From the IMG/VR virus record IMGVR_UViG_3300027730_000009, positions 1-64,000 of that record: a DNA stretch of 64,000 nucleotides; one strand, given 5' to 3'. Positions 39,343 through 52,444 of this stretch are shown here, one piece after another. The DNA comes from a virus. Below the pieces are notes generated by a model. The model was not told the DNA's origin. It saw only the letters and a program-made list of their open reading frames with translations, and did not search any database. The position numbers and the translations under genes were made by a program. Within the stretch, counting starts at the first letter, position 1. Each line of letters starts with the position of its first letter.

Positions 39343-40365
39343 ATGAGTAAGTATGATTTTTTACTTAGAAAATTCAACAATGGTCAATTGGGAAATATTT
39401 TAGGCGCCTTGGATGGTAAGATAGAACCTATTATTGGATTATTAGATAAAAAAGGATTACTTGACCAAATAAATTTGACTTCTAATGATAACGAAGAATA
39501 TCATAACCATGGCTATTATTATATCGCCAAAAACCATCCAGAAAAGTTTTTATCGATGATGGTAGAATTCTTCGATGAAATTTCTGTTGAGGGCGATGGT
39601 AGAACATTTTTAACTATTGCTGACCGAAGTGACCTATCCGAGTTATTTTGTGATAGTATTAGAAATGGTTTGAGTCAAAGCACCGTTGCAAACATTTTGG
39701 ATGGTGAAAATGATTGGAGAAGTTTTGATGTATCATCTGAAAACCTTTATCGGGATGTTATCGAAGATTTAACTCCCAAAAATGAAACTATTTTATATCA
39801 AAGAGTGTTAAAAGATTTTCTGAATGAAAGTGAGAAGATTTATCCTGAAACAGAGCTACTTCAATCAATTGCCGAAGAACAAGGTCATAATGATTTCGTT
39901 GAACTAACCCAAGAGAATATCCCTAAGATTTTCTCAGATGAAGATAGTGCTCTCTCAGTATTGGGTATTTTGGAAGATTTGAGGTCAGATTTACATTCTT
40001 TATACGACAGCGCATACAACGACGCGTATGAACCTGAACTATATGAAAACATTTTCAATTCATTAAGTGATTTTTTTGTTGGCAGAGGTGATTGGGTTTC
40101 AAAACAATCCCCTAAAGACCCAACCAAAACTCAATATGATTTTAGAATTGAAGTCAATGACTTTGTTGGTTTAATGAAAAGGTATTTCGATGAACTCAGA
40201 GGTGAAGGTACCCATACTATTGAAAATTATGGTTATTTTATGAGTGTTCTACAAAATGGTATTGATATGGGTGTATTTGAATGCGTTAGGGTATTCGCAC
40301 CTGACTATGCCGACTGGACCAAAATGAAAGAAAGTTTTAACGAGTTATTTTCAGACTATATCTAA
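39343..40365 (+). CDS. acidic hypothetical protein
   Basis: 340 aa; TATTTATA at 39330-39337. Confidence 0.75.
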
Positions 40366-43300
40366 ATCAGCAAACCTTTTTCTTTCGCCCTATTAAATAA
40401 TTTTTCAGCTCTTTCTTCGAGTTGATTGATTATAGTATCCTGTTCTTTAAGAGCCTCAACACAAATAGCAATTACTTCACGATATCTTACCATGTAAGTA
40501 TTTTGCTCAGAACCAACTACTAATTCAGGGTAAAACTGAAGTATTTCTTGTGCAATGAATCCTATTTCTGGCTCTTCTTTCTTTCCCCAAGCATAATCTT
40601 CTAACCAATTGAATTCAACACCTCTAATTTTCTGTATTGTCTCCAATGCGGATTCAATTTGATGAATGTTTGTCTTTAATCTAAAATCTGAAGGTCCAGT
40701 AGGACCGGGAGCTCCTTGAGCACCCTGTGGTCCAGTTGGACCTTGAGCACCTGTACCAACTTTTTGTCCCTGAGCACCTTGAGGACCTGCAAGAGCTCCA
40801 CCTATGTCACCTTGTGCTCCTTGAGGACCTCCACCTCCTTGAGCACCTTGAGCACCTTGTGGTCCTATTGCCCCTTGTGAACCTTGGGAACCTTGGGGAC
40901 CAACACCTCCTTGAACACCTTGTCCACCGGCAGCACCTTGGAATCCTTGAGCTCCAGCCGCTCCTTGGAAACCTTGACCTCCTTGGGCTCCTTGAGCTCC
41001 TTGAGCTCCAGTCGCTCCTTGGGAACCTTGAAAACCTACAGGTCCTTGAGCTCCTTGAGGTCCTTTAGAACCTTGTGCTCCTTGAGGCCCTTGTGCCCCT
41101 TGTCCTCCTTGAGCTCCTTGAGGTCCTACAGCTCCTTGAGCACCTTGACTTCCTTGAAATCCTTGTCCTCCAGTTGCTCCTTGGAAACCTTGAGCACCTT
41201 GACCTCCTGTCGCCCCTTGGAAACCTTGTCCGCCTTGAGCTCCTTGAGGTCCTACAGCCCCTTGAGCACCTTGAGCACCTTGAAATCCTTGACCTCCTTG
41301 AGCTCCTTGAGGTCCTTTCGCACCTTGAGCACCTTGAGCTCCTTGGAAACCAGTAGTTCCTTGGGCACCTTGTGGGCCAACAGCACCTATATGTCCCGTA
41401 GCTCCCTGAAAACCTTGTCCTCCTTGAGCTCCTTGAGCACCTTCAGGACCGGTTGCTCCTGTAGCTCCTTGGAACCCTTGAGCTCCGACGGCACCTTGTG
41501 AACCCTGTGGCCCTATATGACCTTGAGCACCTTGGAATCCTTGACCTCCTACCGCTCCCTGAGAACCTTGTGGTCCTTGAGCTCCTTGAGCACCTTGGAA
41601 TCCCTGACCCCCTTGAGCACCCTGAGACCCTTGAGCACCTATGGCTCCTTGAGCTCCTTGGAATCCTGTTCCACCTTGAGCCCCTTGCGGACCTAAGGCC
41701 CCTTGAGCACCTACCGCTCCTTGATTCCCTTGTCCTCCTTGTGCACCTTGGGACCCTACTGGACCTTGAGCACCTTGAGCTCCTTGAAATCCTTGACCTC
41801 CCTGCGCTCCTTGGGGACCTTGAGCACCTTGACCTCCTGTCGCCCCTTGAAATCCTTGTCCTCCTTGAGACCCTTGTGGACCTTTTGGTCCTTGGGCACC
41901 TTGAGCTCCTTGAAATCCTTGTATCCCTTGAGCTCCTTGTGAACCAATAGCACCTTGAGCTCCTTGTGCTCCTTGAAATCCTTGACCTCCTTGAGCTCCT
42001 TGTGGTCCAGTTCCACCCTGAGCTCCGACAGCACCTTGAAACCCCTGTCCTCCTTGTGCCCCTTGAGCTCCCTGAGGTCCTTGCGCCCCTTGAGCTCCTT
42101 GGAACCCTTGAGCTCCGACGGCACCTTGTGAACCCTGTGGCCCTATATGACCTTGAGCACCTTGGAATCCTTGACCTCCTACCGCTCCCTGAGAACCTTG
42201 TGGTCCTTGAGCTCCTTGAGCACCTTGGAATCCCTGACCCCCTTGAGCACCCTGAGACCCTTGAGCACCTATGGCTCCTTGAGCTCCTTGGAATCCTGTT
42301 CCACCTTGAGCCCCTTGCGGACCTAAGGCCCCTTGAGCACCTACCGCTCCTTGATTCCCTTGTCCTCCTTGTGCACCTTGGGACCCTACTGGACCTTGAG
42401 CACCTTGAGCTCCTTGAAATCCTTGACCTCCCTGCGCTCCTTGGGGACCTTGAGCACCTTGACCTCCTGTCGCCCCTTGAAATCCTTGTCCTCCTTGAGA
42501 CCCTTGTGGACCTTTTGGTCCTTGGGCACCTTGAGCTCCTTGAAATCCTTGTATCCCTTGAGCTCCTTGTGAACCAATAGCACCTTGAGCTCCTTGTGCT
42601 CCTTGAAATCCTTGACCTCCTTGAGCTCCTTGAGAACCTATTGCACCCTGAGCTCCGATAGCTCCTTGAAGACCGATACCTCCTTGAGCTCCTTGTGCGC
42701 CTATTGCACCTTGTGCTCCTTGAGCCCCTTGAAATCCTTGCCCTCCTTGAGCTCCTTGAGCACCTATCGCTCCTTGTGCACCGATTGCTCCTTGTACTCC
42801 CTGAGGTCCAATTGCTCCTTGTACTCCTTGAGCACCTTGACCACCTACATGACCTTGAACACCCTGACCCCCTTGAGCTCCTTGTGAACCTATTGGGCCT
42901 ATCGCTCCTTGAGCTCCTTGGAACCCTTGTCCACCTTGAGAACCTTGAGAACCTCGGGGACCTTGAGAACCTTCTAATCCCTGAGCTCCTTGTCCTCCTT
43001 GAGCCCCTTGAGCACCTTGAGAACCTATAGCACCTTGAGAACCTTGAGCACCTTGAGCCCCTATCAAACCCTGTGGACCTGGAACTCCTTGGGAACCAGT
43101 TGCACCTTGTGACCCTTGAGCTCCTTGAGGTCCTGTATTTTTATTACCTAACCAACCCTGAGGACCTATAATGTTACCAAAATTATTTTGGATAATATTG
43201 GTTCGAGTGTTACCTGAAATTCTTAATGTAGGTGCCGCGTCTATTATTTTAACAATAGAACCTGAATTAGGTGTCGAATATACTAACCCTGAACTATTGG

Positions 43301-43385
43301 ATAGATAAACCCAATTGGTAACAGTAGACGCGGAATCAAGGAACTCAAATTTTCCATCCAAAGGATAAATTACTATGTCAGCCAC
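40362..43385 (-). CDS. collagen-like fibre protein 1 with C-terminal S74 intramolecular chaperone
   Basis: ~815 aa Gly-X-Y (GAQ/GPQ/GFQ); S-DFRLKTNI...GFIAQE; terminal coiled coil. Confidence 0.9.
41463..42632. repeat. ~540-bp near-exact direct repeat, period 630 bp
   Basis: 41463-42002 matches 42093-42632; shadow ORFs 41703..41942 and 42333..42572 translate identically. Confidence 0.85.
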
Positions 43386-46300
43386 CGATTAATGATTTGA
43401 GTTGATTAAGTTTAGTTTGTATTGATTTCACTCTTGTATTATTTTCTTTTAAAGTTGCAATACCTACGGAAACAAGTAAATCGTATTGTAGATTTTTAAA
43501 ACCATAAATATCAGTGCTCACGACTTCAGGAAAAAGTTTTTCTATTTCTTGAGCAATAAATCCTATACTTTTTCCTTTTAATAGATATTTCTGGTTTGGT
43601 TTATACCCCTCCAATTGAGGAATATTGTCTCTCCATTCGAATCTGACACCCTTCATACCAATTACACGACTTTTTATATTTTCTAATGATTTTACATTAG
43701 TTTTTAGTCGTTTATCTGATGGGGGACCTTGCGCTCCTTGGGCCCCTTGTGGTCCTTTTGGCCCTTGAGCACCTGTACCCCCTCCTATCCCTTGTGCACC
43801 TTGAGGTCCATCTGGTGGTTCCCCACCACCACCAGCTATTCCTTGAGCCCCTTGAGAACCTTGAAAGAATCCATTTGCACCTGTGGCTCCTTGAAAACCT
43901 TGGACATTGCCAGCCCCTTGAGCTCCTTGAGGTCCAGTTGGCCCTGTTGCACCGGGGGTGATATTGGGTTGACCGGGATGTCCAGTCACCCCAAATGAAC
44001 CTTGGGCACCCTGAGGACCACCCTGAGCTCCTACAGCAGATATGGCACCCTGAGCACCAGTAGCCCCTTTAGCACCAATAGCTTCAATTGGGTCAGCTGC
44101 AGCCCCGGGATTACCAGTATCACCAACAGCTCCACCAAATCCCGGAGCACCTGTAGTTACACTTGCAGCCCCATTATTACCTGTCGTTCCTTGAGCACCA
44201 GTAAATCCCGGTGCACCCTGTGTCACCCCTGCAGCTCCGTTGTGACCTGTTGCACCTCCATTACCATTAGCTCCGGTATGTCCTTGGACGGCACCTTGAG
44301 CACCTTGAAATCCTGTGGCACCCTGAGCACCTCCAAATCCCGGTGCACCTTGGGTGGCACCTTGAGCTCCTTGAAACCCTGTAGCTCCTTGTGCACCAGT
44401 AAATCCTAAATCACCCGTCACAGAACTTTGAGCTCCTTGGGCTCCTTGACTTCCTTGACTTCCTTGGGCTCCTACATGCCCTGTTGGTCCTCCTTGAGCC
44501 CCTATTTGTCCTTGGGCTCCTTGTGGACCTGTTGCGCCAGTGTGTCCTTGAACTATCGATGCTGGTCCTTGAGCTCCTTGAGGACCTTTAGTACCTTGAG
44601 CTCCGACGGCTCCTGATACTTCACTTGCGGTCCCACCGTGTCCTGTAGGTCCTTGTGCACCTATACCTCCTGTATGTCCTTGAACAGCTCCTTGGGCACC
44701 TATATGTCCTTGGTCACCTTGAGCACCTTGTGCTCCTTTGGCACCCACAGCTGAAATCGCGTCACCGGCAGCTCCAGTGTGACCTGTAGCCCCTTGGGAA
44801 CCTTGTGCTCCGGTAGCCCCTTGAACCGCATTTTGTGCACCTTGAGCTCCTTGAGAGCCTTGTGAGCCAGTAAATCCCGGCGCTCCTTGTGTTGCCCCTG
44901 CAGCACCGATGTTACCTGTGGCTCCTTGGGAACCTGCAGCTCCCGTATGTCCCTGAACCGCACCTTGTGCTCCCTGAAACCCTTGTGCTCCTTGTGCACC
45001 AAAAATACCATCATGACCAGGGTTGACCCCTTGAGCGCCTTGTTGACCCACGGCACCTTGTGCCCCTATAATACCTCCATGTCCTGTCACTGCACTTTGA
45101 GCTCCTGTTGCACCTTGAGCTCCCTGAGCTCCTTGACCACCGACAGCACCTTGGACAGCTCCTTGAGCTCCAATGTGTCCCTGAGCTCCTTGAGCTCCAA
45201 TAACACCAACATGTCCCTGAACCGCCGATTGAGGTCCTTGAGCTCCTTGAGGACCTTTGGTACCTTGAGCACCCTGAGCACCTGAGACTTCACTTGCGGT
45301 CCCACCGTGTCCTGTAGGTCCTTGTGCACCTATACCACCTGTATGTCCTTGAACAGCTCCTTGAGCACCTATATGGCCTTGGTTACCTTGAGCACCTTGA
45401 GCTCCTTTCGCCCCATCAGTACCTAATCCTGCAGCAGCTCCTGTATTTCCCGTTCCTCCTTGAGCACCTTGTGCTCCGATGTTACCGGTTGGTAATCCTT
45501 GTGCTCCCACGGCTCCTTGAGCACCTTGAAAACCCATTACTCCAGAAGCACCTTGAGTACCACCATCAGCACCGATATTACCTGTAGCTCCTTGGGAACC
45601 TGCAGCTCCCGTATGTCCCTGAACCGCACCTTGTGCTCCCTGAAACCCTTGTGCTCCTTGTGCACCAAAAATACCATCATGACCAGGGTTGACCCCTTGA
45701 GCGCCTTGTTGACCCACGGCACCTTGTGCCCCTATAATACCTCCATGTCCTGTCACTGCACTTTGAGCTCCTGTTGCACCTTGAGCTCCCTGAGCTCCTT
45801 GACCACCGACAGCACCTTGGACAGCTCCTTGAGCTCCAATGTGTCCCTGAGCTCCTTGAGCTCCAATAACACCAACATGTCCCTGAACCGCCGATTGAGG
45901 TCCTTGAGCTCCTTGAGGACCTTTGGTACCTTGAGCACCCTGAGCACCTGAGACTTCACTTGCGGTCCCACCGTGTCCTGTAGGTCCTTGTGCACCGATA
46001 CCACCTGTATGTCCTTGAACAGCTCCTTGAGCACCTATATGGCCTTGGTCACCTTGAGCACCTTGTGCTCCCTTAGCTCCAATATCTAAAAATTCCGATG
46101 CCGCAGCTCCTGTATTTCCAGTTCCTCCTTGAGCACCTTGTGCTCCGATGTTACCGGTTGGTAATCCTTGGGCTCCCACGGCTCCTTGAGCCCCTTGAAA
46201 ACCCATTACCCCAGACGCACCTTGAGTGCCACCATCAGCACCGATGTTACCTGTGGCTCCTTGGGAACCTTCAGCTCCCGTATGTCCCTGAACCGCACCT

Positions 46301-47244
46301 TGTGCTCCCTGAAACCCTTGCGCTCCTTGAGCACCAAAAATACCATCATGACCAGGGTTGACCCCTTGAGCGCCTTGTTGACCTACGGCACCTTGTGCAC
46401 CTTCAAACCCTATATGTCCTTGTACAGCCCCTTGTGAACCGATAGCACCCTGTGCTCCTTGAGCACCGATTGCCCCTTGTGCTCCCTGAACAGCCCCTTG
46501 TGCTCCAACCTCACCTTGTGCCCCTTGGGCACCAATTGAACCTGTTTCACCTGCAACACCACCTTGGGCACCAATACCACCTTGAGCTCCTTGAAAACCT
46601 TGAGCACCTTGTGCACCTATTGTTTCATTTGCCAATCCAACAACTCCCTCACCACCTTGAGCCCCTTGAGCTCCTTGAGCCCCTACGGTAGCCCCTTGAG
46701 CTCCTTGAGCACCTTGTGGTCCTTTAACACCTTGAGCACCTTGTGCTCCTTGTATACCTCCTTGGGCACCTTGAGCTCCGGCACCCCCTTGGGCACCTTG
46801 TGCTCCTTGTGCACCTGACACACCACCTTTAGCACCTTGAGCTCCTGTGTCCCCTTGAATCCCTTTAGCACCTTGAGCTCCTTGAGAACCTTGAGCACCC
46901 TGAGGACCTATAGGTCCAACTGCGCCCTGGGCTCCTTGGCCACCGATAGCACCTTGGAATCCTTGAATATTTAGTGGTGGTCCGACCCATTCACCGATGG
47001 TGTTTATCATCAGGGTTTCACCAGCCCAAACCCCTGATGTAGCATTGGTAATTGCAAGTCCTTTAGAGACTAATCCTGTTGTCGAAATTTCAACAGTGTC
47101 AAATTGGGTTACCGAGGAGAAATTAATTCTGTCCGCCTCCAACATAACCACAACCATACCTGATGATACAGAATCATCAAAAACAAAAAGTGGGTCAAGA
47201 GTTAAGGGAGAACCTTGAGGAAAAATAGTTACATTCAATGCCAT
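43378..47244 (-). CDS. collagen-like fibre protein 2 (regularly interrupted) with S74 chaperone
   Basis: ~1080 aa; six triplets plus one 4-residue unit per period; SDKRLKTNV...GFIAQE. Confidence 0.9.
44560..46400. repeat. tandem repeat, period 666-669 bp, about 2.7 copies (boundaries approximate)
   Basis: Shadow ORFs at 45087/45753 and 45499/46168 are offset by 666 and 669. Confidence 0.75.
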
Positions 47245-47245
47245 A

Positions 47246-50200
47246 TCAATTTATTTCATTTTCAAGGTCTTCAATTAATTTTTGTAGTTCTTCAATAAAT
47301 ACTTGTTGTTCTTTAATACCTTCAACAAGTAGGGCATTTAACTTCGGATAATCGATAGAATAATAACCGTTGTCTTTTAAGTCAACCACTTGTGGTATTA
47401 CGGCTCTAACTTCTTGAGCAATAAATCCAATAGAGTGTATTTGTCCTAATTCTTTATAGGTATCATAATGTGGTGCCGATTCCAACCAATCAAATTCAAC
47501 GGGATTCAATTTCAAAATTTTATCTAAAGCGTCTTCAATTGTAGTAACATTTGTTTTGAGTCTCGCGTCGGACTTTTCACATGCTGTTTGGTTAGATAGT
47601 GCAGCGCCAGGCCCAGGGTCACATTCACCTATTGTCCAACAATTCACCCCATCACTAAAATTAGCGCCTCCAAAACAAGGAGGACAACTCGTACAGGCAC
47701 TATCTGAGAAAATGTTACAACCGTTAGCCAGCGTCGCACAGTTGGAGTAGAAGGTAACATTTTCACCAGAACATACTGCCTCACAGCTCTCTGGATTACA
47801 ATTCGCATTGTGGGGATAACAAGCTACTCCAGTAGCTCCTTGTGCTCCTTGAAACCCGGTAGCACCTGGTGCACCTGTATCACTAGCACCAGGAGCACCT
47901 TGGAATCCTATTATACCGACGTCCGGAATCCCTTGGGCTCCTTTTTGTCCTTGTGGTCCACCAGGGGTACCTTGAGCACCTGTTGCACCAGGGGTAGTGT
48001 TATTAGCACCTGGTGCGCCACCAGGTCCAGGTGGACCGCCCCCGCCAGGAGGTCCTGCAGCTCCTTGTGAACCTTGCGGACCCTTAGTACCTTGCGCGCC
48101 TGTTGGACCTGGATTACCTGGAGGTAAAGTTGAACCTGTAGCTCCTTGTGCTCCCTGTACCCCTTGAGGACCTCTCGCCCCTTGTGACCCTTGTGGCCCA
48201 ACAGCACCCTGAGCACCTTGAGGACCTGTAGCTCCTATGGTACCTTGCGCCCCTTGTGGTCCAACAGCACCCTGTATCCCTTGTGCTCCTTGAGGTCCTC
48301 TACCTCCTTGAGCTCCTTGAGGTCCTACTCCTCCTTGACTTCCTTGAGAACCTTGAGGTCCTCGGGCACCGACATCACCAGTTCCTCCTCCAGCACCTTG
48401 TGAACCTTGAGAACCCTGTGGTCCTCTAGCACCGACATCACCAGTTCCTCCTCCAGCACCTTGTGAACCCTGACCCCCTTGAGGTCCTCTATTACCTTGA
48501 GCTCCTGTACCTCCTGTTGCTCCTTGTGAACCTTGACCACCTTGAGGTCCACGAGCACCTTGCGAACCTTGAGCTCCCTTGGCTCCTTGTGCCCCTTGAG
48601 ACCCTTGTGGTCCGATATTTCCTTGAGCGCCAGTTTCTCCTGTTGCCCCTTGTACCCCTTGTGCTCCTTGACCCCCTATCAGTCCTTGAGCTCCTTGGAA
48701 TCCGACAGCACCTTGAGCTCCTTGAACTCCTTGTGGACCTCTAGCCCCTTGGACACCTATTGGACCTTGAGCACCTTGTGCTCCTTGTACTCCTTGTGGA
48801 CCTCTTGGTCCTTGGACTCCCTGAGGACCTATGGCACCTTGAACACCTTGGGAACCTTGTGGTCCTCTATTACCTTGAGCACCTGTTCCTCCTTGCGCAC
48901 CTTGCGACCCTTGGGCTCCTTGAGGTCCTCTATCTCCTTGAGCTCCTTGGCCTCCTTGAGCCCCTTGAGCACCTTGAGCACCCTGAGGTCCTAAGGCTCC
49001 GGTGTGTCCAGTGGCTCCAGCAGCACTCTGTGAACCTTGAGACCCTTGTGGTCCTCTTGCCCCGATTTCTCCAGTAGCTCCTTGAGCTCCTTGGGACCCT
49101 TGAGCACCTTGTGGTCCTACGCTACCCTGAGCTCCAGTTCCTCCAGTTGCTCCTTGTACACCTTGTGCTCCTTGAGGTCCAACGGACCCTTGGGACCCTT
49201 GAGCTCCCTTAGCCCCTTGAGCTCCTTGAGACCCTTGTGGTCCGACATTTCCTTGAGCTCCAGTCTCTCCAGTTGCTCCTTGTGCCCCTTGTGCTCCTTG
49301 ACCTCCTATCAGTCCTTGTGCTCCTTGGAATCCGACAGCACCTTGAGCCCCTTGGGCTCCTTGCGGACCTCTAGCTCCTTGAGACCCTATTGGACCTTGA
49401 GCCCCTTCCGCTCCTTGTACTCCTTGTGGACCTCTTGCCCCTTGTGAACCTTGTGGTCCGACAGCACCCTGAAGTCCTTGTGCCCCTTGAGGTCCTCTGG
49501 CACCTTGGGCTCCTTGAGCTCCTACGGCATCATTTTGTGCTCCTTGTGCCCCTTGAGGTCCTCTACCTCCTTGTGACCCTTGAGGTCCAACAGCACCTTG
49601 AACTCCTTGGGCACCCTGAGGTCCTAAAGCTCCGGTATCTCCTGTTGCTCCAGGAGCACTCTGAGAACCTTGAGACCCTTGTGGTCCTCTTGCCCCGATT
49701 TCTCCAGTAGCTCCTTGAGCTCCTTGGGACCCTTGAGCACCTTGAGGTCCTACGCTACCCTGAGCTCCAGTTCCTCCAGTTGCTCCTTGTACACCTTGTG
49801 CTCCTTGAGGTCCAACGGACCCTTGGGACCCTTGAGCTCCCTTAGCCCCTTGTGCCCCTTGAGACCCTTGTGGTCCGACATTTCCTTGAGCACCTGTTTC
49901 TCCAGTTGCTCCTTGTACCCCTTGTGCTCCTTGACCTCCTATCAGTCCTTGTGCTCCTTGGAATCCGACAGCACCTTGAGCCCCTTGGGCTCCTTGCGGA
50001 CCTCTAGCTCCTTGAGACCCTATTGGACCTTGAGCCCCTTCCGCTCCTTGTACTCCTTGTGGACCTCTTGCCCCTTGTGAACCTTGTGGTCCGACGGCAC
50101 CCTGAACACCTTGTGCCCCTTGAGGTCCTCGGGCTCCTTGGGCACCTTGAGCACCTACGGCATCATTTTGTGCTCCTTGTGCCCCTTGAGGTCCTCTATT

Positions 50201-51751
50201 TCCTTGAGCTCCTTGGCCTCCTTGAGCCCCTTGAGCTCCTTGAGCGCCCTGAGGTCCTAAGGCTCCGGTGTGTCCAGTGGCTCCAGCAGCACTCTGAGAA
50301 CCTTGAGACCCTTGTGGTCCTCTTGCCCCGATTTCTCCAGTAGCCCCTTGTGCTCCTTGGGACCCTTGAGCACCTTGGGGTCCTATGTTTCCCTGAGCAC
50401 CTTGGGCACCTTCACCACCTTGTGCTCCTTGAGCACCCTGTGGACCAACTAATCCTTGAGCCCCTTGAGCCCCTTTTGAGCCTTGTGACCCTTGTGGCCC
50501 GAAAGGTCCTACTAATCCTTGGGCACCTTGTCCTCCTTTTGCTCCTTGTACCCCTTGAGCTCCTTGGGGACCCGCAGCACCTTGAGCACCTTGAGAACCT
50601 ATTCCTCCTTGAGCACCTTGTGCCCCTTGAGGCCCGATAGCACCTGTGGCTCCTTGGAAACCCTCGGCACCTTGTGCTCCGATGTTACCCGTGGAGCCGA
50701 TTGCCCCCTCAGAACCTTGAGCACCAGTAGTTCCCTCAGCACCTTGAGCACCAGTAGGTCCTATTGCTCCTTGAACACCCTGAGGCCCTTTGGGACCTTG
50801 TGCACCTTGAGCACCAACAGCAGCATTTAGAGTATTGTTGTAATCCAAAAATTCGATACCAAAAAACATTTTGATATCTTGATTCACATTAGTGCTTCCT
50901 GAAGTAAAAGATATCCCAAAATCCCAATAGTTACCAAACAAGGATGTACTAGTAACATTATAGAGATAATTACCATCGAGAGGTCCATCAACATCGAGTA
51001 ATTCAACTCTTAAATCCCAGTTATTATCAATTTGAGAAAATATACTACTTAAATCAACAAGTCCAGCTCCTTGAGGTGTAGTTCCTCCTGAAACTGAGAC
51101 TGACATTGTGTTAACACCAGTCACTGTTGTGTCACTATTAGTCGCCGCAACCCTTAGAGCCCCATCAAAAGTCGAGTCAGCTACCCATGTCCACCAATAT
51201 GGACCATAAATTGTTGGTTGACCACCACCTTGATTTCCTTGTGGTCCTTGAGCACCTTGCGCACCTTGGGCACCAATGGCACCCTGAGCACCTGTAATAT
51301 TGGTACCAGGTCCTGTCCAATTTCCTGTACCATCCAAGACTTGTGTACCTCCGACCGATAAAAAGTTAGTGACCGTAAGGGTTGAAAACACATAAACCTC
51401 AGGAGAACATCCTCCCAAGTTTGATGAAAGAACATCACTAATATCTGTTACTGTACTTGGTCTTACACAACGATAATAAGTTAGACCCGAAGGAACATTA
51501 ATAGTTTCTAATACCCCTGTACTACAATTACGATATGTCGCAACCCCCGTTCCTCCACCAGTTGCCAAAAATGAAAAGTAATCACAATTTTCTTGGGGTG
51601 CAAATAAAACTTGGTTTTCAAATAACAAAGAGGCATCATATAACACCAAAATTTTGAACTTAAAACTTGGGTCAGTCTCAAATAATATTTCAGGAATGTT
51701 TCCAGGTCTTGAACGTATATTACTTGGAAATATTGTTAGATTCTTTGCCAT
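47246..51751 (-). CDS. collagen-like fibre protein 3 with inserted globular domain, Cys-rich domains and S74 chaperone
   Basis: Main Gly-X-Y run 50815-47822; Cys-rich segment before SDARLKTNV...GFIAQE; TATTTATA at 51775-51768. Confidence 0.9.
48560..50380. repeat. tandem repeat, period 630-633 bp, about 3 copies (boundaries approximate)
   Basis: Shadow ORFs at 48760/49390/50023 and 49037/49670. Confidence 0.75.
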
Positions 51752-51842
51752 TGAGTTTTACAGATACTATAAATACATCTAAACAAAGTTTAGAGCACCA
51801 AAGTTTATTAGATATTATAATAAAATTATAATAAGGGTAAAC

Positions 51843-52130
51843 CTACTCCTTGAGATGTTTTTTGATTATGTCAACCGCTTCGGTTAACTCTTGATAGTCC
51901 CTGTCGGGAGCATACAGAAATGACTTGTGTTTATCACCCCCCTTTTCTTGGATTATCAAAAGAGCAGGTACATAGTCGTTTTCTGTTGCCTTAACAAAAA
52001 TATCATATTCTTCTTTATTGTCATCGATATCCCTGTCAACAAAATCGATACCTTCACTTGTGAGCATATCTTTAAAGTCATAACAATGGGGACATCCTTT
52101 CATTGTATAGACAACTATATGTGTAGACAT
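51843..52130 (-). CDS. glutaredoxin-like protein
   Basis: VVYTMKGCPHC...VP. Confidence 0.85.
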   Translation of the reverse strand: MSTHIVVYTMKGCPHCYDFKDMLTSEGIDFVDRDIDDNKEEYDIFVKATENDYVPALLIIQEKGGDKHKSFLYAPDRDYQELTEAVDIIKKHLKE

Positions 52131-52132
52131 CT

Positions 52133-52444
52133 TTAGTATTTGTTTATCACCTCCAGCAATTGAGATTGACTCATAACTCCCACATTAGAGAACACCTCTT
52201 TACCTTCTTTATACACTTTAAGTGTGGGAACCGAGCGGATTCCAAGTTCCATAACGAAATCTCTGTCAGAGTCGATATCTAAACTAAAGATACCCATGGA
52301 TAGTTCTTGTCCTGACTTTTCCAAACTCCCGAGGTTACCCATTAAAACTTTACAGGGACCACACCATGTGGCAAACAAATCCAAGACAAATGTCTCGTTA
52401 TTTTTGATTTTTTCTTTTACTTGTTCAGATGATAGTTGTGTCAT
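52133..52444 (-). CDS. trxA: thioredoxin
   Basis: FATWCGPCK...GIRSVPT. Confidence 0.92.
   Translation of the reverse strand: MTQLSSEQVKEKIKNNETFVLDLFATWCGPCKVLMGNLGSLEKSGQELSMGIFSLDIDSDRDFVMELGIRSVPTLKVYKEGKEVFSNVGVMSQSQLLEVINKY

Follow-up and report, generated by a model that had tools for sequence, protein, structure and literature searches.

Three neighbouring, coupled collagen genes on the minus strand of a large uncultured lake phage (IMGVR_UViG_3300027730_000009), here named A, B and C, appear to encode the three chains of one fibre module that is conserved in a family of large uncultured freshwater phages. Each protein combines a long collagen rod with an N-terminal domain that is homologous among the three and with an autocleaving S74 chaperone. 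The trio is conserved among relatives, and the numbers of collagen units in the three rods are locked to one another, including compensating insertions and deletions. Selection for in-register co-assembly of A, B and C is well supported. The simplest reading is an A:B:C heterotrimer, to which we assign about an even chance; we infer it from the sequences, together with a location on the virion and a receptor-binding role.

Gene organisation and domain architecture

The window, i.e. the whole stretch of 64,000 nucleotides that was analysed, contains the following features (gene A is gene 3 of the initial annotation, B is gene 2 and C is gene 1).

47246..51751, minus strand: gene A, 1501 aa (N-terminal domain, 8-unit collagen segment, 135-aa insert, 330-unit rod, Cys-rich tip, S74)
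51302..51751, minus strand: A N-terminal domain, aa 1-150, homologous to the B and C N-terminal domains
51221..51292, minus strand: A short collagen segment, aa 154-177, 8 units, N-terminal to the insert
50816..51220, minus strand: A globular insert, aa 178-312
47822..50815, minus strand: A main collagen rod, aa 313-1310, 330 units, GxR-GPQ at each 7th unit
48572..50402, minus strand: A array, about three 70-unit (630-633 bp) copies, unit index 44-252 (52-260 when the short segment is included)
47573..47821, minus strand: A Cys-rich tip domain, aa 1311-1393
47249..47572, minus strand: A S74 intramolecular chaperone, starting SDARLK, with an acidic C-terminal helix
43378..47244, minus strand: gene B, 1288 aa (N-terminal domain, 345-unit rod, S74 directly after)
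43720..46962, minus strand: B collagen rod, aa 95-1175, with 44 four-residue units (GAVQ, GVNP, SAVQ, others)
44566..46405, minus strand: B array, about three 10-period (666-669 bp) copies, unit index 57-257
43381..43719, minus strand: B S74 chaperone, starting SDKRLK, with a basic C-terminal helix
40362..43385, minus strand: gene C, 1007 aa, GTG start, 8-nt overlap with the end of B (N-terminal domain, 271-unit rod, S74 directly after)
40692..43133, minus strand: C collagen rod, aa 85-898, GGQ-GFQ at each 7th unit
41406..42666, minus strand: C array, two 70-unit (630 bp) copies, unit index 52-192
40365..40691, minus strand: C S74 chaperone, starting SDFRLK

The open reading frames, the Pfam matches and a shared N-terminal pattern (MAxN-I-x-I-F/Y-P ... 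W-x-G-P) bear out the adjacent, co-oriented trio with related N-termini and S74 domains that the initial annotation had described. All three products exceed the curated cut-offs of both Pfam Collagen and Peptidase_S74. The PF01391 pattern of Gly at every third residue extends over long runs (330, 345 and 271 register units in A, B and C), giving totals of 338 (330 + 8), 345 and 271 units, among which 10, 50 and 2 are irregular. The rods were also rightly described as Pro-poor and Gln-rich, with 3.5-7.0% Pro and 16-25% Gln.

Peptidase_S74 (PF13884) is located at the extreme C-terminus of A, B and C with 60.5, 43.9 and 54.0 bits (cut-off 22), and a six-frame search agrees. The S-D-x-R-x-K motif marks the start of the domain; S, D, R, L and K are invariant in the three chains and kept in relatives. 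Among solved structures, a tail-fibre chain (8jov) and MYRF (7dc3) were matched weakly. The tip domain is found in the A chain only, and B and C pass from collagen straight into S74. Among relatives the tip is hypervariable, with one invariant Cys at either end; its predicted model is of moderate quality (pLDDT 64), and a comparison of this model with the PDB gave no fold match. Residues 175-308 of A, which take in most of the globular insert, share 79% identity with a module found in an unrelated PT-rich protein of 1878 aa from a different viral contig.

For the N-terminal domain, the AlphaFold model was too poor for use (pLDDT 52.6). A homologous-protein search with the N-terminal domains of B and of C from relative L015 returned zero matches, and full-length trio proteins seem to be missing from the protein collection searched. 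No relative was found in the genome-contig collection, and the GenBank phage collection holds none of the B N-terminal domain or of a 548-aa neighbour gene. The closest S74 domains in the latter belong to cyanophage tail fibres with only short collagen stretches.

Repeat period and rod lengths in relatives

A 7-unit period had been proposed for all three genes. It is evident from the unit identity at lag 7 (z-scores of 11.3-11.7 in A, 10.2-11.0 in C and 3.2-4.2 in B) and from the spacing of the one-residue bulge in B, where 37 of the 44 four-residue units follow at exactly 7. The period is marked by GxR-GPQ in A, by GGQ-GFQ in C and by the four-residue units in B. The bulge is present in the B chain of every trio, with a 7-unit spacing in 85% of cases.

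The internal duplication of ten periods previously reported for each gene is likewise seen at the DNA level. Self-identity peaks at shifts of 633/630 in A (98% and 87%), at 666/669 in B (100% and 96%) and at 630 in C (100% over ~570 nt), corresponding to about three recent copies in A, about three in B and two in C. The arrays begin at unit 52 (A, short segment counted), 57 (B) and 52 (C), and those of A and B finish at units 260 and 257. Positional DNA homology among the three arrays was not found above background identity, so gene conversion does not explain their coincidence.

The trio was compared across 14 trios in which all rods are complete (13 from relatives) and one in which C is cut off. 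In the 14 further distinct trios gene order is kept and stops and starts overlap; the order A, B, C is universal except in the module-permuted L119. Judged by their S74 domains (50-53% identity within and 30-34% between types), the A, B and C types are old orthologous groups. The unit counts of relatives (A/B/C) are as follows.

98/99/98; 118/118/117; 154/154/152; 161/161/160; 167/167/166
174/174/177; 195/195/194; 214/216/215; 215/221/219; 269/270/268
301/301/302; 304/303/305; 314/314/319; 356/356/(C cut off)

Across a 3.6-fold range of 98-356 units, 13 of the 14 complete trios have counts that match within 1-6 units. The A and B counts are correlated with r = 0.9996 (permutation p <= 5e-6). 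The A-B difference is 7 units within the window and 0-2 outside it (0-2 in 13 of the 15 trios having both rods). Independent variation of orthologue lengths had been named beforehand as the observation that would speak against a common register. Instead, A, B and C track each other in 13 complete trios, as do A and B in another. Nor do the genes ever stand alone in relatives from this phage group: the three types recur in one order, the exception being L119, in which the pairing of N-terminal domains with C-terminal modules is permuted and which still has one of each. The proposed co-variation in steps of 7 or 70 triplets holds in part. Unit counts track, and no special role of 70 triplets is apparent, with indel steps in relatives of 3, 4, 6, 10, 12 and 14 periods. 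An explanation of 70 triplets as the least common multiple of the 7-unit period and a 10/3 helix was dropped, as relatives have no preference for ten periods.

Close relatives document the compensation directly. L013 and L015 are 89-94% identical and differ by an indel of 126 aa in A and one of 132 aa in B, each equal to six periods. Their near-optimal placements overlap (A, about periods 20.6-22.7; B, about 17.5-22.4). Together with the locked counts, these paired indels uphold the earlier suggestion of selection to keep the chains in register. Deviations from equal length are a C rod 5 units too long in L015, a span of 6 units in L119 and, in L103, a B rod that falls one period short of its orthologue in L101.

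In each gene the repeats lie in tandem, with 63/66-bp and higher-order periods, and whole-period steps are natural under unequal crossing-over. Repeat dynamics in three paralogues with an inherited 63-bp repeat, free of selection on relative length, is nevertheless a very improbable source of the match. Counts are equal in the 13 other complete trios (98-319 units, with the p value given above), six-period indels are paired between close relatives, and paralogue DNA is at background identity. Recent triplication is excluded because the N-terminal and S74 domains are orthologous across relatives. Lengths also match in L019, L025 and L029, whose A and C chains have a weak 7-unit repeat or none, so the match is not a by-product of indels in 7-unit quanta.

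The nature of the match also bears on whether the chains form separate rods. B is longer than A by 10-59 residues, about its bulge number. Unit counts agree to 0.3-1% and residue counts differ by 3-5%, which makes selection of separate rods for equal physical length unlikely, unless bulges add no rise. In the clade with the globular insert, the short segment and the main rod of A add up exactly to B (7 + 307 = 314; 7 + 349 = 356).

A mixed helix of other stoichiometry, e.g. A2B or AB2 with C in a fibre of its own, would account for the particularly tight locking of A and B and for the C outliers of +5 and -70 units. It is nonetheless unlikely, given that C lies within 1-3 units of A and B in 11 of 14 complete trios and that the duplicated C array of the window starts at the A/B unit index.

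The short C chain of the window

Equal length of the three chains in the window itself, as implied by the initial annotation, was not found. C is shorter than A and B by 67-74 units, about one 70-unit block. The short C may be either a real variant or a repeat collapsed in the assembly. In Logan contigs from two runs, the contig over the C repeat core is about twice as deep as the flanking sequence, and the two-copy core of B behaves in the same way; these depths are not copy numbers. The pattern would fit two copies of the 630-bp block of C. The near-identical contig L099 breaks inside the C repeat. The C gene is widespread, with at least half of its sampled words present in each of 17 lake metagenome runs from 13 studies.

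Proposed assembly of the chains and comparison with known systems

Since relatives hold equal unit counts over a 3.6-fold range, A, B and C probably form one mixed triple helix. In the proposed A:B:C fibre, the small beta-rich N-terminal domain of each chain would serve as virion anchor, and the S74 chaperone would trimerise, set the register and cut itself off at the conserved Ser of S-D-x-R-x-K. The chains would wind 1:1:1 into a single collagen triple helix, in which B supplies a looped-out extra residue in each 7th unit and C a Gly at the X position in fixed phase. The collagen rise is ~0.29 nm per residue; if this textbook value applies, the fibre of this phage would measure ~290 nm. After release of the chaperone, the hypervariable, disulfide-rich tip of A could act as an adhesin with a putative role in receptor binding. 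An indel in one chain would leave a stretch of strand unpaired and would be followed in the partner genes by a change of equal size and position. The phase of the C GGx units relative to the B bulge was considered as well; the offset is -2 in five lineages and -1, -3 or diffuse elsewhere, and it is kept out of the evidence because phase inheritance alone could give it.

Three separate homotrimers (A3, B3, C3), each with its own S74 and matched in length by bundling or by the virion-host span, are a real possibility, if somewhat short of probable. To our knowledge, every solved S74 chaperone is a homotrimer, as are all characterised S74 chaperones and bacterial or viral collagens in general. 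In animal heterotrimers most Gly-X-Y breaks line up between chains. Here, the 8-50 breaks of B are unmatched in A or C, and coincidences are few (L025 A104/C104; L029 at ~137-148 in all three chains); in B3 all strands would break at one level, as is usual. The one-period mismatches of L015 and of L103 B against L101 point the same way. So does the window: C has 271 units against 338 in A and 345 in B, A and B are themselves 7 apart, and yet the phage is widespread. A heterotrimer could not absorb the deficit of C, unless the assembly collapsed a perfect repeat. Conserved inter-chain charge pairing between the rods was not found; the collagen domains are almost uncharged. Against homotrimers stand the match in units and not residues, the exact sum of the two A segments, and indels and duplicated arrays that coincide in position as well as size. 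Moreover, B3 and C3 would be bare rods without any distal domain after cleavage. On balance we lean towards the A:B:C heterotrimer.

S74 domains are carried by phage fibres and spikes such as the K1F/NF endosialidase and the T5 L-shaped fibre pb1 (Schulz et al. 2010, as cited in PMC4621102). A, B and C resemble such fibres in a C-terminal domain of ~110 aa with S-D-x-R-x-K that scores above the Pfam cut-off; a position at the distal end of a trimeric fibre and self-cleavage after folding are expected for them as well. The known examples, in contrast, are single-gene homotrimers with a beta-helical or other receptor-binding part upstream and not a bare collagen rod, whereas here three paralogous chaperones cap three length-locked collagen chains.

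Animal heterotrimeric collagens include complement C1q (A, B and C chains) and collagen types I, IV and VIII. The phage trio shares with them three paralogous chains from neighbouring genes, equal triplet numbers (although not in the window), a register-setting C-terminal globular trimerisation domain and chain-specific Gly-X-Y breaks. Unlike these collagens, with which it has no homology beyond the collagen repeat, it has rods of 98-356 units (~27 in C1q), a nucleating domain that would be cleaved off and one chain with a strictly periodic bulge; its heterotrimeric state is a prediction.

In gene arrangement the trio can be likened to the collagen-like gene triplets of Pasteuria ramosa, which comprise three sequence groups in fixed order and orientation and are repeated in the genome (McElroy et al. 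2011; PMC13233619). Heterotrimers have been raised as a possibility for these proteins (PMC7743900), which, unlike the phage trio, are bacterial spore-surface adhesins without S74 chaperones; length locking or a periodic bulge is not reported for them (PMC13233619, PMC7743900). Streptococcus Scl1/2, Bacillus BclA and the collagen-like segments of phage tail fibres are similar in their Pro-poor rods without hydroxyproline and in length variation by repeat number. These are single-gene homotrimers, usually of <100 triplets, without co-varying partner genes.

As far as we know, collagen heterotrimers have been documented in no group but animals, and they are viewed as an invention of that group. 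The chances are roughly balanced that the trio represents the first non-animal heterotrimeric collagen: an ABC helix of up to ~300 nm, nucleated by three paralogous self-cleaving S74 domains, with a register locked by the bulge, the Gly-Gly unit and a single adhesin tip, and with position-matched compensating repeat changes. Collagen folding and design still face the question of how long repetitive chains come into register and stay in it. The trio amounts to a natural experiment run repeatedly, in which rods change 3.6-fold and three genes stay equal to a unit or two. It offers an easily expressed natural system for how terminal domains and periodic bulges set register, bears on how hydroxyproline-free collagens of hundreds of nanometres are built, and could serve as a model for designed ABC collagens. 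To phage biology it adds a probable fibre type not described before, widespread in large freshwater phages and carrying a hypervariable tip.

The trio further bears on a possible hetero-specificity of S74 chaperones. In all ten original trios, the A-type S74 domain ends in 36 residues that are acidic (-2 to -6), and the tip-bearing A-type chains of later trios have tails of -3 to -5. B-type tails range from 0 to +3. Such acidic A-type and neutral-to-basic B-type tails hint at a selection of one chain of each type by the trimerisation domain. Separate homotrimers would leave it unexplained why hardly any singleton S74 tail reaches the acidity of the A-type tail: 81 other S74 tails average +0.3 (sd 1.8), and none is below -4.

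Gene layout and rod architecture

The virus record holding the window comprises 91,973 bp at an estimated completeness of 31% and is thus a fragment of a large phage. The G+C content of the window is ~34%, and cargo genes suggest a Bacteroidota host. Three neighbouring genes, arranged head to tail, show Pfam Collagen and Peptidase_S74 matches above cut-offs, and the record has no S74 genes besides them:

Gene A: 47246-51751, minus strand, 1501 aa
Gene B: 43378-47244, minus strand, 1288 aa
Gene C: 40362-43385, minus strand, 1007 aa; starts at a GTG and shares 8 nt with the end of B

As described in the initial annotation, the products share related N-termini, a W-x-G motif and S74 chaperones. 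The N-terminal domains (84-150 aa) are homologous (pattern MAxN-I-x-I-F/Y-P ... W-x-G-P), and S-D-x-R-L-K is common to the S74 domains, in which A is 32-41% identical to B and C. Only A has an 8-unit collagen segment and a 135-aa globular insert, both ahead of the main rod, and an 83-aa Cys-rich domain (the tip) between rod and S74; in B and C the rod passes straight into S74. The insert (window 50816-51220) shares 79% identity with one module in a protein of 1878 aa from another viral contig (L003:721-6357); outside that module the protein is unrelated, and it has abundant Pro/Thr linkers and Cys. On account of this match the insert looks like a mobile surface module.

No structural genes were recognisable near the trio. 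Directly upstream of A with its Cys-rich tip, two small thioredoxin/glutaredoxin-like ORFs are located (window 51843-52444), which might have a role in disulfide handling or else simply in nucleotide metabolism. At a distance of 34 kb from the trio, and outside the window, is a 1264-aa ORF (L002:3777-7571; record 85777-89571). Within window 40000-52000, G+C is 46-57% in the collagen genes, versus about 29-40% in the rest of the 64,000-nt window, and these genes give rise to numerous long ORFs in alternative frames and on the complementary strand that are spurious.

The rods were parsed into Gly-register units (Gly-X-Y, or four residues at those units of B where one extra residue forms a bulge), seven units making one period. 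A contains 330 units (plus 8 in the short segment), B 345 and C 271. The 7-unit period reported earlier for all three genes was recovered and is strong, with lag-7 z-scores of 11.3-11.7 (A), 10.2-11.0 (C) and 3.2-4.2 (B). The repeating motif is GxR-GPQ in A and GGQ-GFQ in C; B carries 44 four-residue units (GAVQ, GVNP and SAVQ among them), 37 of which are spaced exactly 7 units, giving a 22-residue period. The rods are Pro-poor and Gln-rich, again as described, and also rich in Thr/Ser/Asn. Pro-poor collagens are usually nearer a 10/3 helix than the 7/2 helix on which the initial annotation drew. The internal 10-period duplications claimed for each gene are likewise present and recent, with shifts of 633 and 630 bp in A (98% and 87% identity), 666 and 669 bp in B (100% and 96%) and 630 bp in C (100% across about 570 nt). 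These shifts indicate about three copies in A and B and two in C.

Length matching among related trios

No related cultured phage was found. In profile-guided scans of metagenome and IMG/VR contigs, the same three genes occur together, rather than singly, in many freshwater viral contigs (some of them 120-320 kb long) with a matching neighbourhood: a 251-aa gene, a ~550-aa gene, the trio and a convergent gene. Judging from the higher identity within than between types (S74, 50-53% versus 30-34%; N-domain, 39-45% versus 27-29%), A, B and C are old orthologous groups.

Rod units per chain (L-numbers are contigs; the boundaries at either end of the rod are homologous)
Locus: A, B, C
L020: 98, 99, 98
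L122: 118, 118, 117
L025: 154, 154, 152
L019: 161, 161, 160
L112: 167, 167, 166
L116: 174, 174, 177
L021: 195, 195, 194
L026: 214, 216, 215
L119: 215, 221, 219
L018: 269, 270, 268
L101: 301, 301, 302
L100: 304, 303, 305
L015: 314, 314, 319
L013: 356, 356, cut off
Window: 338, 345, 271

Unit counts of A and B are correlated at r = 0.9996, and within-trio ranges this small arose in 0 of 200,000 partner permutations. The A-B difference is 0-2 units outside the window (L119 is listed with 215 vs 221) and 7 within it, where A is the shorter. B exceeds A by 10-59 residues, about the number of its bulges; units are matched, residues are not. The expectation that orthologue triplet counts co-vary holds among the relatives over 98-356 units, but the proposed ten-period (70-triplet) step is not preferred, with steps of 3, 4, 6, 10, 12 and 14 periods among relatives. 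Lengths also match in L019, L025 and L029, whose A and C chains show the 7-unit repeat barely or not at all, so that the matching is not a side effect of indels in 7-unit quanta.

At 89-94% identity, L013 and L015 are set apart by one gap in each of two chains, 126 aa long in A and 132 aa long in B; both gaps amount to six periods, and their near-optimal placements overlap (about periods 20.6-22.7 in A, 17.5-22.4 in B). In the clade with the A insert, short segment and main rod add up exactly to B (7 + 307 = 314; 7 + 349 = 356). The near-identical L103:105-6804 and L101:3568-10333 differ in B by one 22-aa period (294 vs 301 units) with C at 302 in both (A is off the contig in L103); one-period mismatches therefore occur in nature.

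The window is the exception among the trios. Its duplicated arrays span units 52-260 in A (short segment counted), 57-257 in B and 52-192 in C, starting at the same place in all three and ending at the same place in A and B, but its C falls short of the other two chains by 67-74 units, roughly the size of a single 630-bp block. Gene conversion is not the cause of the coinciding arrays, since at the DNA level the three genes resemble one another no more than background. C is matched in the closest complete trios, L100 and L101 (301-305 units). Because the copies in C show 100% identity across ~570 nt, a short-read assembly would contain two of them whether the true number is two or higher, and the shortfall may reflect either a real variant or a collapsed repeat; the near-identical contig L099 breaks inside the 630-bp repeat of C.

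Division of labour and chain composition

One chain with one-residue bulges is found in 9 of 9 lineages analysed for spacing, and 85% of 240 spacings in these are exactly 7 units. In C-type chains, one X position per period is occupied by Gly. The tip (about 85-95 aa) is confined to one chain; L112 appears to be without it. It is hypervariable, but invariant Cys residues flank it, one directly following the rod and one directly preceding the S74 serine, a pattern that would fit an insertion looped out of the chain. Over its final 36 residues, the A-type chaperone bears a net charge between -2 and -6 in 10 of 10 original trios and between -3 and -5 in later trios with a tip-bearing A-type chain; B-type tails range from 0 to +3, and 81 further S74 tails, taken from unrelated loci, average +0.3 (sd 1.8, none below -4). 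L119 (1539-10351) has reshuffled pairings of N-domain and C-terminal module, yet retains one of each kind: A-type N-domain, bulged rod and B-type S74 (gene 1), C-type N-domain, tip and A-type S74 (gene 2), and B-type N-domain and C-type S74 (gene 3).

Animals encode heterotrimeric collagens, e.g. C1q, in neighbouring paralogues. Phage fibres with collagen-like stretches are established, as are S74 chaperones (PMC4621102 and references therein), and collagen-like gene triplets in fixed order are already known from Pasteuria ramosa (PMC13233619; PMC7743900). In full-text literature searches, no account of a phage collagen that is heterotrimeric or length-locked came up.

The sequences give good support to selection that keeps the three chains in register for co-assembly, and such selection is very probable. 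An A:B:C heterotrimer, for which we see an even chance, would most simply account for the unit-level precision, the matching of units rather than residues, the indels at corresponding positions, the split rod of A adding up exactly to B, the lack of a tip on B and C, the acidic A-type tail, and the module permutation in L119. Against it stand the breaks in B, unmirrored in A or C, and the one-period mismatches (in L015, and in B of L103 relative to its L101 orthologue); the short C of the window is a further misfit. Moreover, all solved S74 chaperones are, to our knowledge, homotrimers. Three length-matched homotrimers are a somewhat less probable alternative, and the remaining probability falls to other chain compositions.

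Further collagen and S74 proteins were encountered outside the trios. In a phage of another kind, collagen and S74 are combined in a single 786-aa gene whose N-terminus is similar (MAKNVQIIP...; L075:7931-10291). About 4.4 kb upstream of this gene is a collagen ORF that is rich in Ser/Thr and lacks S74. The 786-aa gene could represent the family in a one-gene form. Other viral contigs (L031, L032, L046, L050, L053 and L096) encode S74 fibre proteins that are very long (2100-2900 aa) and alternate several collagen segments with globular parts, an architecture unlike the trio. Words of gene C (window 40362-43385) are partly present in runs labelled crustacean metagenome (X18-X20), besides many lake-water runs.
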